Below are positions 3,205 to 30,678 of a DNA stretch of 41,227 bases, piece by piece (the first letter of the stretch is position 1; each line of letters starts with the position of its first letter). The stretch comes from a virus (lineage: Duplodnaviria > Heunggongvirae > Uroviricota > Caudoviricetes), in IMG/VR virus record IMGVR_UViG_2713896799_000015, positions 1-41,227 of that record; one strand, written 5' to 3'. The position numbers were made by a program, and so were the translations under genes. The notes below the pieces were generated by a model. The model worked only from the letters and a program-made list of their open reading frames with translations, did not search any database and had not been told where the DNA came from.

Positions 3205-3240
3205 TATCATTGGGTTATCCTATTCAAAACGATAGCAATT

Positions 3241-5181
3241 ATGTCTTATTTAAAATACAGAACAGATATTGATGGGCTGCGAGCTATTGCGGTTTTGCTG
3301 GTCGTGCTGTACCACGCAAACTTTCCTATTCATGGTGGTTTTATTGGTGTAGATGTTTTTTTCGTCATATCAGGATATCTCATTACCAACATCATATATA
3401 AAGAGACTAAAAGAAATATTTTTTCATTCCTTAATTTTTACAAACGTCGAATAAAGAGATTGCTCCCAGCTTTTGCTTTTCTTCTTTTATTTTTATTTGT
3501 TTACTGCAAATTATATTTGATGCCAGATGAACTTATATCATTCTCTAAAAGTGCGGTATACGCTCTTCTTGGCATAAGCAATTTCTATTTTTTTAGTAGC
3601 ACAGGTTACTTTAACTCAACCTCTTATGAACCGCTTTTACACACATGGTCGCTTTCCGTTGAAGAGCAGTTCTACATTGTATGGCCTTTCATCGTTTTCA
3701 TGCTCGCTCGGAACTCAGGGACAAAAAAAGCAATAATAATATCCTCATTACTATTTATTGTATTCCTTGGTATTTCACAGTATGGAGCGGTTAATTATAA
3801 AACAGCAGCGTATCTCCTACTGCCTTTTAGGTTCTTTGAGTTGCTCTCAGGTGCCCTACTTGCTATCTATAAAGATTCAATAACAAAACATCTGCGCCAC
3901 GGTTCTGTAATTTCACTGGTCGGCGTAATGCTGATTGTGTTGAGTTCATTATTTATAAATTCTAACACGCCATTTCCTGGGTTCACTGTTTTGCCTACAT
4001 GTTTAGGCGCTGTAATGCTTATTGCTGCAGGTGACTCATCCAAAAACTTCATTTCTAAAGTGCTGTCTTTAACTCCAGTTGTTTATGTAGGAAGAATTTC
4101 CTACTCTCTTTATTTATGGCACTGGCCTGTACTGATTCTTGCTGAATATAGGGGGATCGATCTTACGGCCTTAAATGCGACGGCGCTCATACTTATCGCA
4201 TTCATCATGGCAAGCATAAGCTATCACTTCGTTGAAAAGCCATTTAGGAAGGATTCGCTGCAATATTTCAGGACTGCATTTATAACCATCTACCTGATAC
4301 CATTAATAGTATCCGCTGCCTATGCAGCGTACATTTTAAAAAATGATGGTTTTCGCGCCAAAAGTTCAGAGTTAGTATCTGAATTAGAAGAGAGAAATGC
4401 GACAAATATTATGCGCCCACAGTGTATTGATAAATTATTTATCGGTAATGTAAATGACTGTCATCTTGGCGTTAATAAAGGCGAAGTAGATGGCGTGCTT
4501 CTTGGTGACTCCTTTGGTAATGCATATGCTTACTTTATTGATGAACTTGCGAAAGATGCTGGAATATCAATAACAGATACTACATATAGCTCAACACCTG
4601 TAATATCAGGAATTTATGTGCAGGATATCAGGAATAAGATATCTGACATAGATGCTAACCTGATAATGACATATACAAAAAACAGGCTGGAGTATGCAGC
4701 AAAACAAAAGTTCGCGATAATTTCCGTTTTTTGGGATCAGTACGGGCCACAAAATAATTACTTCCGTATCTTCGATAAAAACGGTGACGTATCGGAGAAT
4801 GCTTACCAGTTGCAATCTGAAGCAATAAAATATCTGCTGTCCAATGGCGTGAAAGTTTACATCATTGCAAGACCTTACCAGTCTATTGGCCCTGCTGCGA
4901 TAAACAAACTGCGCCAAATTAAGCTGCGGCATGGGGATGTAACAACTGAAAAATATGAATACGGCGTAAAGAAAGATGATCGGATAGAATACAAGTTAAA
5001 GCAGGAGTTCCCTCAGATAACGCTAATCGATCCTAACGATGTACTTTGCCACAAAGGGGAATGTGATGCCATCGTGGATGGAAAGATCATTTTCAGAACT
5101 GATGGTTCACACCTGAATGCTGTTGGAGCAAAAAAAATCGGGGAAGAGTATTTGAAAAACTACGCAAACCCATTTCGATAA
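3241..5181 (+). CDS. O-antigen acetyltransferase, OafA/Oac-like (acyltransferase-3 membrane domain plus C-terminal SGNH-type domain)
   Basis: N-terminal RTDIDGLRAIAVLLVVLYHA...GVDVFFVISGYLIT motif, about 10 TM segments, 646 aa; AT-rich and opposite in strand to neighbours (moron). Confidence 0.8.
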   Translation: MSYLKYRTDIDGLRAIAVLLVVLYHANFPIHGGFIGVDVFFVISGYLITNIIYKETKRNIFSFLNFYKRRIKRLLPAFAFLLLFLFVYCKLYLMPDELISFSKSAVYALLGISNFYFFSSTGYFNSTSYEPLLHTWSLSVEEQFYIVWPFIVFMLARNSGTKKAIIISSLLFIVFLGISQYGAVNYKTAAYLLLPFRFFELLSGALLAIYKDSITKHLRHGSVISLVGVMLIVLSSLFINSNTPFPGFTVLPTCLGAVMLIAAGDSSKNFISKVLSLTPVVYVGRISYSLYLWHWPVLILAEYRGIDLTALNATALILIAFIMASISYHFVEKPFRKDSLQYFRTAFITIYLIPLIVSAAYAAYILKNDGFRAKSSELVSELEERNATNIMRPQCIDKLFIGNVNDCHLGVNKGEVDGVLLGDSFGNAYAYFIDELAKDAGISITDTTYSSTPVISGIYVQDIRNKISDIDANLIMTYTKNRLEYAAKQKFAIISVFWDQYGPQNNYFRIFDKNGDVSENAYQLQSEAIKYLLSNGVKVYIIARPYQSIGPAAINKLRQIKLRHGDVTTEKYEYGVKKDDRIEYKLKQEFPQITLIDPNDVLCHKGECDAIVDGKIIFRTDGSHLNAVGAKKIGEEYLKNYANPFR

Positions 5182-7619: not shown

Positions 7620-7639
7620 ATTGCATGGAGAAGATTAAG

Positions 7640-7897
7640 ATGCAGCAGTATCACTATCCACTGGAAGACGGATTTACCGAAAGGATTCACACGCCGGGAG
7701 GCGTCAGGTCACTGGTGGAGGGATCGCACTTGATGAAATTACTCCGGGATCTCGATAAGGATGGATTTAATGTCGATGGCCCACTTGCCGAACTGACTGC
7801 ACTGATTAACTACGTCACCAGCTCACAGATGTCTATGCGGGATCTGCAAACACATCTCGACTATTGTGCCGAACAATTACGAAAACAAACCCGGTAA
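7640..7897 (+). CDS. Small antirepressor-like protein (stand-alone homolog of Ant C-terminal domain)
   Basis: GGAG 9 nt upstream of ATG; aligns with the last ~85 residues of the 312-aa Ant (shared YxYPL, IHxPxGV, LMKLL, DG, AELT, RDxQTH). Confidence 0.55.
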   Translation: MQQYHYPLEDGFTERIHTPGGVRSLVEGSHLMKLLRDLDKDGFNVDGPLAELTALINYVTSSQMSMRDLQTHLDYCAEQLRKQTR

Positions 7898-7971: not shown

Positions 7972-8910
7972 TCAGAAGAACCCTGCCTTGTCGTTGATGT
8001 ATTCCGCGTGCGTCTGGATATCACGCAGGCATTTGCTCACACCGACGATGTAGCAGAACATGGTGGTCAGCTCCGCCGCCGCGCCCGATACATCGTGCCC
8101 GTCTTCCTGTAACTGGTTCAGCAGTTTCATCAGCAGTGAGTTCTCCGTCAGGCCGAGAACACCCGACGGCGAATGAATCAGACTGCGGTAGCCTGGCTTC
8201 AATGGATAACCATAACATTTTGTCTGTGTTTTAATTGCCTCACGAAGCGCATCTAACATCTTGACTGCCACTTCATCATTCTCTGATGCAGATCCAGCAG
8301 GGAGATACTCCCCTTCAAGCGGAACCCGAGCAACAAGAGACAACGCTTCGGCAAATTGATCTTCACCAATTTCTTTGTACGAACAGCCAAAATGAGATTT
8401 CAGTGACGACCACATGGTGATCATCGCCTTAGCCTGTTTTTCTTTTGGCAGAGACTGACCGCGACTCATGACGAGTTGTTTAATGGCTTCCTGCTGTTCA
8501 GTTGTTATTTTACCCGGCAACGCCTTTTTAGCTTTGCGTGGGTTAACCACATGGCCTTTAGTCCAGTACTCGTAGAGCACATCGTCACACTCTTCCTGAT
8601 ACTGGATTACCTTGTCGCGGATTTCAGGGCGGACTTTGTTAGGGCTGATGCTGTTCAACCAAGCTGCCAATTTTCGTAAAGCCATACAAATCATGGCTTG
8701 CACCCCACCGGCAGAAGGTATGGTGATTTCCACCATACCCTTCGAGAAGCGTTGAGAAATCTTCTTATGTTGAGATTTCCAGTCTAGCCCCATTCCCTCA
8801 ACGATAGGTTTCATTGGGGTATACGGTTCGCCGTTGTGATTGACAACATAAAGCTCTGCGCCGTGGAATGGCACGTTGATAGTAGATACTGCTGTTGCTA
8901 TACTCGTCAT
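7972..8910 (-). CDS. Antirepressor Ant
   Basis: 312 aa, directly downstream of an Arc-like gene as in P22 immI; C-terminal domain shared with the small LexA-linked gene. Confidence 0.65.
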   Translation of the reverse strand: MTSIATAVSTINVPFHGAELYVVNHNGEPYTPMKPIVEGMGLDWKSQHKKISQRFSKGMVEITIPSAGGVQAMICMALRKLAAWLNSISPNKVRPEIRDKVIQYQEECDDVLYEYWTKGHVVNPRKAKKALPGKITTEQQEAIKQLVMSRGQSLPKEKQAKAMITMWSSLKSHFGCSYKEIGEDQFAEALSLVARVPLEGEYLPAGSASENDEVAVKMLDALREAIKTQTKCYGYPLKPGYRSLIHSPSGVLGLTENSLLMKLLNQLQEDGHDVSGAAAELTTMFCYIVGVSKCLRDIQTHAEYINDKAGFF

Positions 8911-8958
8911 GTCGTTAATTCCTATACGTAGTTTTACGATACTGAAGCCCTGACGGTC

Positions 8959-8973
8959 TGGCCACCGTGGGGC
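8959..8973. promoter_or_regulatory. Mnt/Arc-type operator-like site (core CCACCGTGGGGC)
   Basis: Shares 12 bp with the 9165-9179 palindrome; lies between arc and ant. Confidence 0.4.
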
Positions 8974-8982
8974 TTCGCTGTT

Positions 8983-9150
8983 TTATGCCACGCTATTCTT
9001 CTCACCAGTGAGTCCATACACTTTCCTCAGCTGATAGATAATCTCTGTATTGAACTTTCGGCATTCTTTTTCGCCATTTCTTTCAATAGCTAACTTCACA
9101 TCGTCCGGAAAACGAACTCGTCGTTGACACATCTCTTTTGCTTTTTGCAT
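8983..9150 (-). CDS. Arc-like ribbon-helix-helix repressor
   Basis: 55 aa from ATG at 9150 with AAGGAG RBS; RVRFPDDVKLAIERNGEKECRKFNTEIIYQL resembles the P22 Arc fold signature. Confidence 0.55.
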   Translation of the reverse strand: MQKAKEMCQRRVRFPDDVKLAIERNGEKECRKFNTEIIYQLRKVYGLTGEKNSVA

Positions 9151-9164
9151 TTCATATCTCCTTA

Positions 9165-9179
9165 GCCCCACCGTGGGGC
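9165..9179. promoter_or_regulatory. Perfect 15-bp palindrome GCCCCACCGTGGGGC (Mnt-operator-like)
   Basis: In the divergent arc/mnt control region; central CACCGTG recalls the P22 Omnt core (from memory). Confidence 0.5.
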
Positions 9180-9270
9180 AAAATAATTGTCACACCGTGC
9201 GTCATTGATGTCAAGCACACGGTGAGGCATACTTCAATCATTGCAAGTAACTCAATATTTGGTGAAGAAC

Positions 9271-9702
9271 ATGAGCAGAGAAGATCCACAACTAAGGATC
9301 AGACTTCCCGTCGAAGTAAAAGAAAAAATAGAAATTTCTGCAAAAGCCAATAAGCGATCAATGAACGCTGAAATAGTACAACGTCTTGACACCAGCTTTC
9401 TGAAAGATATTCATGAAGATGACGTAATTTCTGCTTATGAAGCAAAAATCATTGCAAACAATGCACGACATGAAATATCAAATATTATTTTCAAAAGAAC
9501 CTTTAATGAAATTAATAAGAAAATAACACTTGGACATACAAGTTTTTATATAAACCTTAATGACCTTGAACTGGAATCACTTGCAGATAATGATTACCAG
9601 ATCATCTTTGAAAAAACATTTAATAAGCTCAATGAACTAGGTTACATCATCTGTGAAAACTCATGGGATGCAGATGGTTTTGGAATTGAAATACCTGAAT
9701 AG
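9271..9702 (+). CDS. Mnt-like RHH repressor with ~70-aa AT-rich C-terminal extension
   Basis: N-terminus MSREDPQLRIRLPVEVKEKIEISAKANKRSMNAEIVQRL parallels P22 Mnt; protein is 143 aa versus 82 for Mnt. Confidence 0.5.
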   Translation: MSREDPQLRIRLPVEVKEKIEISAKANKRSMNAEIVQRLDTSFLKDIHEDDVISAYEAKIIANNARHEISNIIFKRTFNEINKKITLGHTSFYINLNDLELESLADNDYQIIFEKTFNKLNELGYIICENSWDADGFGIEIPE

Positions 9703-9744
9703 GAAGAACAAAAGGCGTGTACATATTACACGTCTTTAATACAA

Positions 9745-10356
9745 TTGAAAAACGCCACATTACTGATGTATGTTACAACAAGGAGCGATATTTTGAAAAC
9801 CATATCTATATTAAAGGTTGCATTAGGCGTCGCTATTATTTTGACTCTCTCAATATTGTTTTATTTTTACCACAAACAAACTGCTATTGCTCTTGATAGT
9901 CACGCGGCAAACTCATTTTTCTCAGAGTACATAGTGCCGCTATCAGGAAGCGGTATAACAAATAAATATACTGACTATGACATCAAATATGGAATTGATG
10001 ATGGGGAGACTATTGTATTACATGTAATCATTAAAAACCTAATGACAGTAAATAAAAATACAGACTTCAACGATAAAAATACAATACATCACAACAACAG
10101 CAAAACATTAATTTCTTATAGTAGCAACATCTATACGGATAAATACCTAAAATACATATCAGAAGATACAATAAAAGAAACCCGCGAAAAGTTAAAAAAC
10201 ATATATTGTGCATCCGGCAGTTTTCACAAATTATCGCCGCAAGAGCGTTTATTCTACGAAGCAAGAAAACAACGTAAGTCAATAATATTACATTATTATG
10301 CTGATTCAGGGGAGACACTCATATTTAATATTGGGGTTTCCCCTGAATCATGCTAA
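9745..10356 (+). CDS. Membrane-anchored protein of unknown function (candidate superinfection-exclusion protein)
   Basis: Single N-terminal TM helix, Asn/Lys/Tyr-rich body, very AT-rich; occupies the position of sieA next to mnt in P22. Confidence 0.4.
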   Translation: MKNATLLMYVTTRSDILKTISILKVALGVAIILTLSILFYFYHKQTAIALDSHAANSFFSEYIVPLSGSGITNKYTDYDIKYGIDDGETIVLHVIIKNLMTVNKNTDFNDKNTIHHNNSKTLISYSSNIYTDKYLKYISEDTIKETREKLKNIYCASGSFHKLSPQERLFYEARKQRKSIILHYYADSGETLIFNIGVSPESC

Positions 10357-25712: not shown

Positions 25713-25789
25713 GTGGCATTAGCTCAGTCGGACAGAGCAACCGCCTTCTAAGCGGTTGGTCGCAGGTTCGAATCCTGCATGCCACGCCA
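25713..25789 (+). tRNA. tRNA-Arg (anticodon UCU)
   Basis: 77-nt cloverleaf: acceptor GTGGCAT/ATGCCAC, anticodon stem ACCGC/GCGGT, loop CTTCTAA, T-arm GCAGG-TTCGAAT-CCTGC, encoded CCA. Confidence 0.85.
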
Positions 25790-28518: not shown

Positions 28519-28560
28519 AACCACCGTGGTAATAGTTACCGTTGTGGTAATAGTACCATG

Positions 28561-28587
28561 CAAAATAAAGCCGCCATAGTTGGCGGC
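28561..28587 (-). terminator. Minus-strand terminator just upstream of terminase genes
   Basis: On the minus strand GCCGCCA-ACTA-TGGCGGC followed by TTTATTTTG. Confidence 0.55.
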
Positions 28588-28627
28588 AGTATTCAAAACC
28601 ATCAAATTCATCATGCATAATCTACTC

Positions 28628-29922: not shown

Positions 29923-30678
29923 TTAAACTGCTAGTTGCAATTGCATTTCAAAGCGGTCGCGTTGTTCACAATACGCAAGAGAACCAGGGCTATTGTGTGC
30001 CTCAATCCGTTCTACCATTAATGCTGCGCGTGTCTCTTTACTTGCAGGTGCATAAGCCCCAGACCAGGCTTTATCAATACCGATGTTTCGAGCGACGTTC
30101 GTACTATCTGCGCTGGCTAAGGGTAATTTTGTGAATATCAGCGGATTTAACATGCGCAATCCATGTAGTTTCGTAACCGGCTGACCATGCTCATCAACAA
30201 TGTGACGAATCAGGTCTTTCATTCTGGCTACCGCAAGAGTTGGGCGCTTTACGTCATAGTCGCCACAACTACCGATAGCCACTCGCGGAAACTCATTGCA
30301 CAAATGAATAAATCGCTCGTCACTTTCATTCATGTGCCACACTGGAACGCCAGCTAGTTTTCCGTGAGGCCACTCATTCAGAAGCGCATCATTTTCCTCC
30401 TCTCCGCCATCAATAACATCCGGGATAATGGCAAAATCGAATCCTGGGTGATTCTTCCAGCGAGCGACAAACTCGTAGTAATCGCTCCAGTCGATTTTGT
30501 TTTTGCCAGCTGCTTTCCAGGCGGTGAATGCACCGTTGTCCAGCGCGAACGACTGACAGTATTCAGCCGCGAGATTGATCTGGCCTGAATGCGCAAAACT
30601 GATAAACGCATGTCGCCCTTTCCATGCTCTCATTGCGCACGTATCAGGAGTAATAGGCCCACCGTGGTAGTGAATCAT
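29923..30678 (-). CDS. Hypothetical protein, 251 aa
   Basis: No clear family; weak resemblance of VAIGSCGDYD to a TGT/DpdA glycine-rich motif. Confidence 0.4.
   Translation of the reverse strand: MIHYHGGPITPDTCAMRAWKGRHAFISFAHSGQINLAAEYCQSFALDNGAFTAWKAAGKNKIDWSDYYEFVARWKNHPGFDFAIIPDVIDGGEEENDALLNEWPHGKLAGVPVWHMNESDERFIHLCNEFPRVAIGSCGDYDVKRPTLAVARMKDLIRHIVDEHGQPVTKLHGLRMLNPLIFTKLPLASADSTNVARNIGIDKAWSGAYAPASKETRAALMVERIEAHNSPGSLAYCEQRDRFEMQLQLAV

Follow-up and report, generated by a model that had tools for sequence, protein, structure and literature searches.

The Mnt and Arc repressors of phage P22 are textbook models of beta-sheet DNA recognition, and the immI region of that phage is the natural point of comparison for the locus presented here. 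In P22, mnt is divergent from the arc-ant operon, of which ant, the antirepressor gene, is the final member, and the antisense RNA sar runs from a promoter inside the 5' end of ant to a terminator at the end of arc. At +1 of the ant promoter (Pant) there is a palindromic operator, whose core is CCACGGTGG. P22 possesses one Mnt operator (Omnt) and an unrelated 21-bp Arc operator (Oarc), the latter placed between the -35 and -10 hexamers of Pant, and its Pant and Pmnt overlap fully on opposite strands. Mnt itself has 82 aa and ends in a short segment that is a coiled-coil tetramerisation domain. In Mnt, operator positions 16 and 17 are governed by residue 6, the 'master residue'; we take these positions to be +5 and +6 in the numbering used here. 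According to secondary statements in two papers, positions 16 and 17 of the operator were those varied, and one residue change shifts the preference at two adjacent operator positions (PMC1131891, PMC1184061).

Among P22-like phages, the 'ant moron' is a highly mosaic, independently expressed insert lying between the DNA-injection/tail genes on one side and the tailspike gene on the other; it often carries mnt, arc, ant, and sar, and ten moron types were distinguished among sixteen P22-like genomes (Villafane et al. 2008, PMC2629481). A ribbon-helix-helix (RHH)-plus-alpha/beta Mnt and a three-operator layout are not described in that paper. A second group for comparison is the Mnt of the P22-like phages SE1, ST64T, and Gally, which shares with our locus the CAC-N-GTG core upstream of mnt (TAAGACCAC-C-GTGGTCTTA) and a Gln at residue 6, but differs in having Asn at residue 8, A at operator position -5, and a single site. 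In the SE1, ST64T, and Gally loci that were fetched, no arc or ant was found.

Here, we describe a stretch of viral DNA of 41,227 nt (the window), a phiV10/epsilon15-like prophage (Uetakevirus, as opposed to the Lederbergvirus P22) with genes for an integrase, an O-antigen acyltransferase, and the small terminase. Its closest phage is TL-2011b, and the whole control region discussed below is carried by 38 of 5,426 complete Escherichia coli genomes. A literature search returned no published description of this three-operator variant or of the TL-2011b immI region. The insert occupies a slot equivalent to that of the ant moron, in another phage genus. Its genes are as follows.

7972-8910, minus strand: ant-like antirepressor gene (312 aa; Pfam P22_AR_N, E 5.7e-45)
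8983-9150, minus strand: arc-like gene (55 aa; beta-strand QRRVRF; aligned to P22 Arc with hhalign)
9271-9702, plus strand: mnt-like repressor gene (143 aa; N-terminus MSREDPQLRIRLP plus a C-terminal alpha/beta domain)

The mnt-like gene is divergent from an arc-ant operon in which ant comes last, and this ORF layout agrees with that of the P22 record. The mnt side of the module is AT-rich (30-34% GC).

The Mnt-like protein belongs to a large family (more than 260 homologue clusters). Its first 46 residues match the Pfam Arc family (PF03869, E 1.1e-14). Among PDB entries, the Mnt repressor 1mnt matches best (E 3.5e-7, residues 3-45), with sequence similarity stopping at residue 45. The arm and strand at the N-terminus read SREDPQLRIRLP, as compared with ARDDPHFNFRMP in P22 Mnt; Arg2 and Arg10 are kept, residue 6 has changed from His to Gln, and residue 8 from Asn to Arg. 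In the AlphaFold2 model (pLDDT 79), a long helix leads into an alpha/beta C-terminal domain of ~95 residues where P22 Mnt has its short segment. Foldseek returned 1par as the top match of the model, and no significant PDB match for the C-terminal domain in a search against the PDB. This domain presumably provides oligomerisation and possibly the bridging of adjacent sites.

The alignment of the Arc-like protein to P22 Arc with hhalign is statistically weak (probability 40%, E 2.9e-4), a profile search retrieved Arc PDB chains at E 0.2-0.5, and there is no Pfam match; the alignment is nevertheless colinear and without gaps, with R13, P15, R31, and E36 invariant and N34 nearly so. Homologues traced to contigs (64-81% identity) are labelled 'Arc family' by NCBI. 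They start with MQKAK or MEKAK, which places the arc translation start at the ATG at 9150; the GTG at 9171, which overlaps a 15-bp palindrome, is a mechanical ORF call only.

The promoters and the antisense RNA complete the module.

8876-8904, plus strand: Psar-like promoter (TTGATA-17-TATACT with TG extension; promoter scan 10/12)
9186-9214, minus strand: Pant-like promoter (TTGACA-17-GACAAT with TG extension; promoter scan 10/12)
9205-9233, plus strand: candidate Pmnt (TTGATG-17-CATACT; 8/12, below the scanner threshold)
8912-8986, plus strand: sar-like antisense RNA, including its U-tail (Rfam RF00262 over 8912-8979, full model)
8944-8976, unstranded: sar terminator hairpin (GAAGCCC...GGGCTTC, followed by GCTGTTTTAT; RNA: GCUGUUUUAU)

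As in P22, the Psar-like promoter sits within the 5' end of ant and the sar terminator at the end of arc. The predicted start, 7-8 nt downstream of the promoter (~8911-8912), falls on the first base of the Rfam sar match. The match scores 44.8 bits against a gathering score of 43, and RF00262 also matches P22 (97.8 bits) and other immI loci. The RNA is complementary to the ant ribosome-binding site and folds with a minimum free energy of -24.1 kcal/mol (z -2.5).

The Pant-like promoter points into arc and is conserved in the alignment of relatives (A1); in this family the scan reads it as TTGACW-17-GACAAT. For the candidate Pmnt, the scanner did pick up a homologue, TTGATG/TTGAAG-17-CATAAT, in two relatives (L010 and L031) with which it aligns in A1. 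The same scan recovered both annotated P22 promoters, Pant at 3294-3322(+) and Pmnt at 3327-3299(-). By consensus matches, Pant and the candidate Pmnt are arranged back-to-back with only their -35 hexamers overlapping, in the window as well as in relatives, in contrast to the fully overlapping pair of P22.

Taken together, the original prediction of an immI-like region here holds, from the Pfam and 1mnt matches to the above-threshold sar, and the locus is a version of the classic P22 immI system, not a separate kind of system. What is new relative to P22, as read from sequence comparison, is the presence of three predicted operators of one consensus, the back-to-back promoters, an apparently altered specificity, and the repressor C-terminal domain.

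The operators can be recognised with the consensus GNCNCAC-N-GTGNGNC (equivalent to GNCNCACNGTGNGNC), which, with at most one mismatch, has only three matches in 41 kb.

O1, 9165-9179, unstranded: perfect 15-bp palindrome GCCCCACCGTGGGGC at approximately +1 to +15 of Pant (zero mismatches to GNCNCACNGTGNGNC)
O2, 9189-9203, unstranded: in the Pant spacer, abutting the -10 (minus-strand 17-mer TGACGCACGGTGTGACA; zero mismatches)
O3, 9214-9228, unstranded: in the candidate Pmnt spacer, abutting the Pant -35 (one mismatch)

Their centres (9172, 9196, and 9221) lie 24 and 25 bp apart. The 15-bp palindrome, two 12-mers, CACCGTG (9193-9199), CACGGTG (9218-9224), and a CCACCGTGG at 28521-28529 had all been reported beforehand and were found where they had been placed, though some of the interpretations need to be revised. 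The palindrome had been said to overlap the start of arc; it overlaps only the mechanical GTG, and O1 lies 15-29 nt upstream of the ATG, directly 5' of the Shine-Dalgarno sequence. CACCGTG and CACGGTG are present, but not as an inverted pair, since each forms the core of its own partial palindrome of 15-17 bp (O2 and O3, respectively). That the two elements (CACSGTG) mark additional predicted operators, with the consensus that also fits the palindrome, had gone unnoticed.

The likeness of the core to the P22 Mnt operator, which had been noted beforehand, stands up to alignment with the P22 record. There, the palindrome AGGTCCACGGTGGACCT is contained in the feature annotated as the mnt operator. 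Read in the direction of arc, P22 has TTGACA, a 17-nt spacer containing Oarc, TATATT, CTCAAT, and AGGTCCACGGTGGACCT, while the window has TTGACA, a 17-nt spacer, GACAAT, TATTTT, and GCCCCACGGTGGGGC, so that the centre of the palindrome follows the -10 by 15 nt in P22 and by 14 nt in the window. O1 and GGTCCACGGTGGACC of P22 match at 11 of 15 bases, and the core CCACGGTGG is common to both phages at this place relative to Pant. The differences are symmetric, at +-5 and +-6, where the window has GG/CC and P22 has AC/GT. The spacer is a different matter: the P22 Arc operator ATGATAGAAGCACTCTACTAT is missing from the Pant spacer of the window, where we find TGACGCACGGTGTGACA with its Mnt-type core in the position that Oarc takes in P22, between -35 and -10. 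Where P22 has one Omnt and an unrelated Oarc, the window thus has three sites of one consensus.

This layout is widely retained. Approximately 40 relatives keep the three sites, from Enterobacterales to Acinetobacter and Comamonadaceae; three CAC-N-GTG sites can be found in Kluyvera, Yersinia pestis, Xenorhabdus, Proteus, Serratia, Acinetobacter, Giesbergeria, Pseudorhodoferax, and a human-gut phage scaffold; in the last four, the sites precede Mnt-like genes that are more distant. Two strong sites are present in a Rhizobium locus. Homologues of the Arc-like and Mnt-like proteins were traced to their contigs, and in each case conservation extends from the Pmnt -10 to the arc leader, with diverging flanks. 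The O3-O2 interval is 25 bp in every enterobacterial locus and the O2-O1 interval 24-27 bp, and the position of O1 is also conserved. In most relatives, O3 is a near-perfect palindrome, GCCCCAC-N-GTGGGG, fused to the TTGACA hexamer (ATGCCCCAC-N-GTGGGG-TTGACA). The O2 17-mer TGACGCACGGTGTGACA is identical in nearly all arc-containing relatives; part of this invariance may reflect promoter constraint, since O2 reaches into the -10 hexamer with its right arm.

The bases of the sites change together with the repressor. The CAC core is essentially invariant and position -4 is free (C, T, G, and A occur even within O1/O3), while position -5 follows residue 8 of the Mnt-like protein. Pooling both arms of all sites, and therefore counting sites and not independent lineages (roughly two with Arg, three with Lys, and two with Asn), Arg at residue 8 goes with C at -5 in 150/150 half-sites (two sub-lineages), Lys with A in 30/30 (three lineages), and Asn with A or T in 6/6, from P22 and from SE1 and Gally, the latter two sharing the palindrome GACCAC-N-GTGGTC. 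The one exception is the Rhizobium locus L050, whose repressor strand (PPLRIRLP) combines Pro6 with Arg8 and which has T at -5 in one arm per site. The pattern of residue 8 and base -5 is as expected of a repressor and its operator, and it would be hard to explain otherwise.

In our best explanation, which we regard as probable when taken as a whole, the region is the control core of an immI-type antirepressor switch inserted in a phiV10/epsilon15-like prophage, and O1-O3 are the predicted operators for the RHH N-terminal domain of the Mnt-like repressor. Pant would read leftward into the arc-like gene and ant, and Pmnt rightward into the mnt-like gene, both as sigma-70 promoters. In the lysogen, the Mnt-like protein would silence ant by occupying O1, at the Pant start, and O2, within the spacer of that promoter. 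From O3, in the Pmnt spacer, it would restrict its own production. The invariant CAC-N-GTG core would be read by Arg2 and Arg10, both conserved with P22 Mnt, and the flanking base at -5 by residue 8, the Arg of this protein pairing with C:G. The sar-like RNA would pair with the ant ribosome-binding site and block translation of ant from read-through transcript, as in P22. Produced from Pant following infection, the Arc-like protein would probably shut the same pair of promoters through this cluster, with O2 as its most likely site by position.

Two kinds of loci point to the Mnt-like N-terminal domain as the sole constant partner of the sites. One relative (L014) shares its N-terminus and its operators with the window but carries an unrelated C-terminal domain, and this places recognition in the N-terminal domain. 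In Xenorhabdus and Serratia, the arc-like gene is missing and a 58-aa helical ORF and a Bro-N antirepressor are found instead; because these loci keep three sites, all of one class, the Mnt-like protein alone can account for them.

The DNA-facing residues of the Arc-like protein are Q, R, and R in the window and Q, K, and R in most relatives, as compared with Q, R, and R in the Mnt-like protein, and given this similarity it may use the Mnt-like sites. Caution is advised, as Q/N/R is the set in both P22 Arc and SE1 Mnt, but the operator of the former is unrelated in sequence to the palindrome that precedes mnt in SE1; a common set of Q/R/R strand residues is thus no proof of common specificity. 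We also sought an Arc-like operator by covariation and rejected the approach: at residue 11, the window and L038 have R and the other loci K, and the operators do not change accordingly.

A broader reading can be offered only tentatively, as we think it somewhat improbable in its full form. It would hold that this is one widespread switch, from Enterobacterales to Acinetobacter and Comamonadaceae, in which a single family of RHH repressors uses three operators spaced ~25 bp apart, with a core read by invariant residues and a flank set by residue 8 (at -5, C for Arg and A/T for Lys or Asn), and in which, in contrast to P22, the early Arc-like repressor has no private operator and competes or cooperates on the same sites.

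The alternative that survives best, though we consider it unlikely, is a division of labour as in P22, where O1 (and O3) would be Mnt-like operators, O2 would serve the Arc-like protein only, and the common core would reflect the ancestry of the two repressors. P22 Oarc is likewise in the Pant spacer, and in arc-containing loci O2 does depart at +-4 and +-6 from the majority of O1 and O3 sites (TGACGCAC / GTGTGACA): its left arm has G instead of a pyrimidine at -4 and its right arm reads GTGTGAC, in all such loci save L032. The arc-less loci have an O2 of the O1/O3 class. Nor can the O2-type arm be dismissed as only a by-product of the -10 hexamer, since O1 of L043 is a perfect GTCACAC-C-GTGTGAC, which makes that arm a genuine half-site. 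The same arms, however, turn up at O1 and O3 of several loci, as well as at O3 of the arc-less L054, and the base at -4 varies freely even among O1 and O3. O2 agrees with the one consensus and every copy of it has C at -5, and two loci with an identical Arc-like protein (L012 and L013) have different O2 left arms.

A shared repressor for all three sites remains our preferred reading. A second copy of the 12-bp core stands between arc and ant. The 12-mer CCACCGTGGGGC occurs exactly at two places only, 8962-8973 and 9168-9179 (within O1); allowing one mismatch, there are 3 matches where 0.08 would be expected by chance. The original prediction had taken the copy at 8962-8973 for a second operator, and one could imagine a roadblock, or a regulator of sar/ant, bound by the Mnt-like or Arc-like protein. 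We find this quite improbable. The copy is identical to O1 over 12/12 bases (13 bp at 92% as an inverted pair) and its left arm, GCCCCAC, is a perfect half-site, but the other arm, GTGGCCA, fails at the informative positions +5 and +7, and the operator consensus misses the copy even with one mismatch. It lies wholly within the sar terminator hairpin, consisting of the CC of the loop, the 3' arm of the upper stem (ACCGT), and GGGGC of the lower stem.

Nine pairs at the base of this hairpin are kept in 10 loci with G-U wobble changes only, and GAAGCCCC belongs to the conserved sar stem even in P22, whose Mnt reads another flank. The upper stem is allele-specific (ACGGU/ACCGU in the window, ACUG/CAGU in P22), and relatives that keep O1-O3 have entirely different upper stems. 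In L009, which is 97.8% identical to the window, the O1 palindrome is kept save for its free centre base, while the 12-mer copy is broken (GCCCAACGGTGG). Conversely, E. coli A41 (L008) has the same hairpin allele beside genes for an unrelated small protein and a LexA-family regulator, with no O1-like palindrome upstream. We conclude from this comparison that the 12-mer located between arc and ant represents the loop and 3' arm of the predicted sar terminator hairpin and is not an operator.

The CCACCGTGG motif requires similar care. It occurs four times in the window as compared with 0.19 expected; the occurrence at 28521-28529, in the leader of the small terminase gene, had been listed as the third, and a fourth at 30659-30667 had been overlooked. 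The terminase copy is unchanged in phiV10, for which DNA and protein searches revealed no mnt-like gene (the virion structural/tail fibre slot has a Bro-N gene only). In PAT1 and Tyrion, the GGTGG part alone is conserved, and the base at -5 is A, the wrong class for Arg8. We rejected a role in Mnt binding for the terminase copy, which most likely represents the Shine-Dalgarno region of that gene. The copy at 30659-30667 was rejected as well, being a single arm inside a coding sequence (the Y-H-G-G codons of MIHYHGGP). Both copies are outside the switch.

A last alternative, that the palindromes are RNA hairpins (for example, a 5' stem-loop stabilising the arc-ant mRNA) or chance GC-rich repeats, is very improbable. 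Where the transcript is predicted to begin, O1 can fold into a hairpin of 6 bp (-10.7 kcal/mol), but this fold does not surpass that of shuffled sequence (z -1.2), and in relatives it is weak or missing (z +0.4 in L010 and +1.2 in L014). Both O2 and O3 precede the predicted start of Pant, and O3 precedes that of the candidate Pmnt as well. What is conserved is a pattern of DNA half-sites, which varies in step with a residue of the protein, and chance would have to account for three clustered matches with zero elsewhere in 41 kb.

For annotation, the analysis corrects this locus in three respects, namely the sar RNA, the full-length start of mnt, and the operators. Short repeats within RNA structures should not be taken for protein sites. 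For the biology of these prophages, the loci form a natural series of Mnt-type repressors in which one core is kept and one flanking base tracks one residue, which would amount to a simple recognition rule. Such a rule predicts heteroimmunity groups among prophage antirepressor modules, including those of Yersinia pestis, Proteus, Enterobacter, and E. coli.

The mnt-like gene (window 9271-9702, + strand) and the ORF that follows it have a GC content of 30-34% (window 9250-10300), compared with 45-55% in the surroundings. The second gene is:

9745-10356, a 203-aa ORF downstream of the mnt-like gene, with a hydrophobic segment at its N-terminus.

We found no Pfam match for this product; in P22, the equivalent position is occupied by sieA. 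In phage TL-2011b (NC_019445, ~3520-3525, corresponding to window ~9296), codon 9 of the mnt-like gene contains one additional G, which changes CTAAGGATC to CTAAGGGATC. The extra base shifts the reading frame of the DNA-binding strand and, because of this frameshift, only a truncated "hypothetical protein" appears for the gene in that record. Either the additional G stems from a sequencing error in a homopolymer, or TL-2011b is naturally mnt-defective.

Small ORFs also adjoin or correspond to members of the immI-type module. Beside ant lies:

7625-7897, + strand, a 90-aa ORF convergent with ant.

Its product matches the final 85 residues of the adjoining Ant protein at 45% identity (E 3e-22); the ORF is a paralogue of the Ant C-terminal domain that stands alone on the opposite strand. 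It could be left over from recombination, or it could act as a modulator of Ant. In CUS-3 (CP000711), described in PMC2629481 as apparently lacking arc, the only annotation at 3221-3702 is "bsq2; boundary sequence". An Arc-family protein of 46 aa, MKVKTLRMPEKLEKILEEKAKEECRSF..., is encoded here without annotation; the homologous ORF at another comparison locus (L006) is labelled "Arc family". Next comes a small Cys-rich ORF resembling the one labelled "ClpX C4-type zinc finger protein" at L005.

Two further features were recorded elsewhere in the prophage:

25713-25789, + strand, a tRNA-Arg gene (anticodon TCT).
28525-28600, - strand, a segment of the leader of the small-terminase gene.

This segment has a GC-rich hairpin and T-run, GCCGCCAACTATGGCGGCTTTATTTT, and after them a direct repeat, CTATTACCAC...CTATTACCAC; both elements are kept in phiV10, the record of which starts ~20 bp past this leader element, and largely kept in PAT1 and Tyrion. 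The element may be a late-operon regulator or may be related to packaging.

Parts of the module are also found in other gene arrangements. At 1500-2700 of the Escherichia coli A41 locus, an ant gene is accompanied by a near-threshold sar match (42.2 bits against a threshold of 43), the small upstream protein differs, and a divergent gene for a LexA-family (S24-type) repressor replaces mnt; here, the ant/sar cassette is under another control logic. ORF7 of the Pseudomonas filamentous phage PfAC03, a Pf inovirus, shares 40% identity with the Mnt-like repressor over 125 residues, C-terminal domain included, and is divergent from an excisionase gene; the region upstream of ORF7 showed no CAC-N-GTG palindromes.

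Upstream of the mnt-like gene of Mixta (L043), the predicted operator O1 is an O2-type arm in the form of a perfect palindrome, GTCACACCGTGTGAC. At the same position in Xenorhabdus bakwenae (L041), O1 is an exact repeat of O2, including GACAAT, and TGACGCACGGTGTGACAAT is present twice, 26 bp apart from centre to centre. The identity of these two copies suggests that operator sites multiply through tandem duplication.
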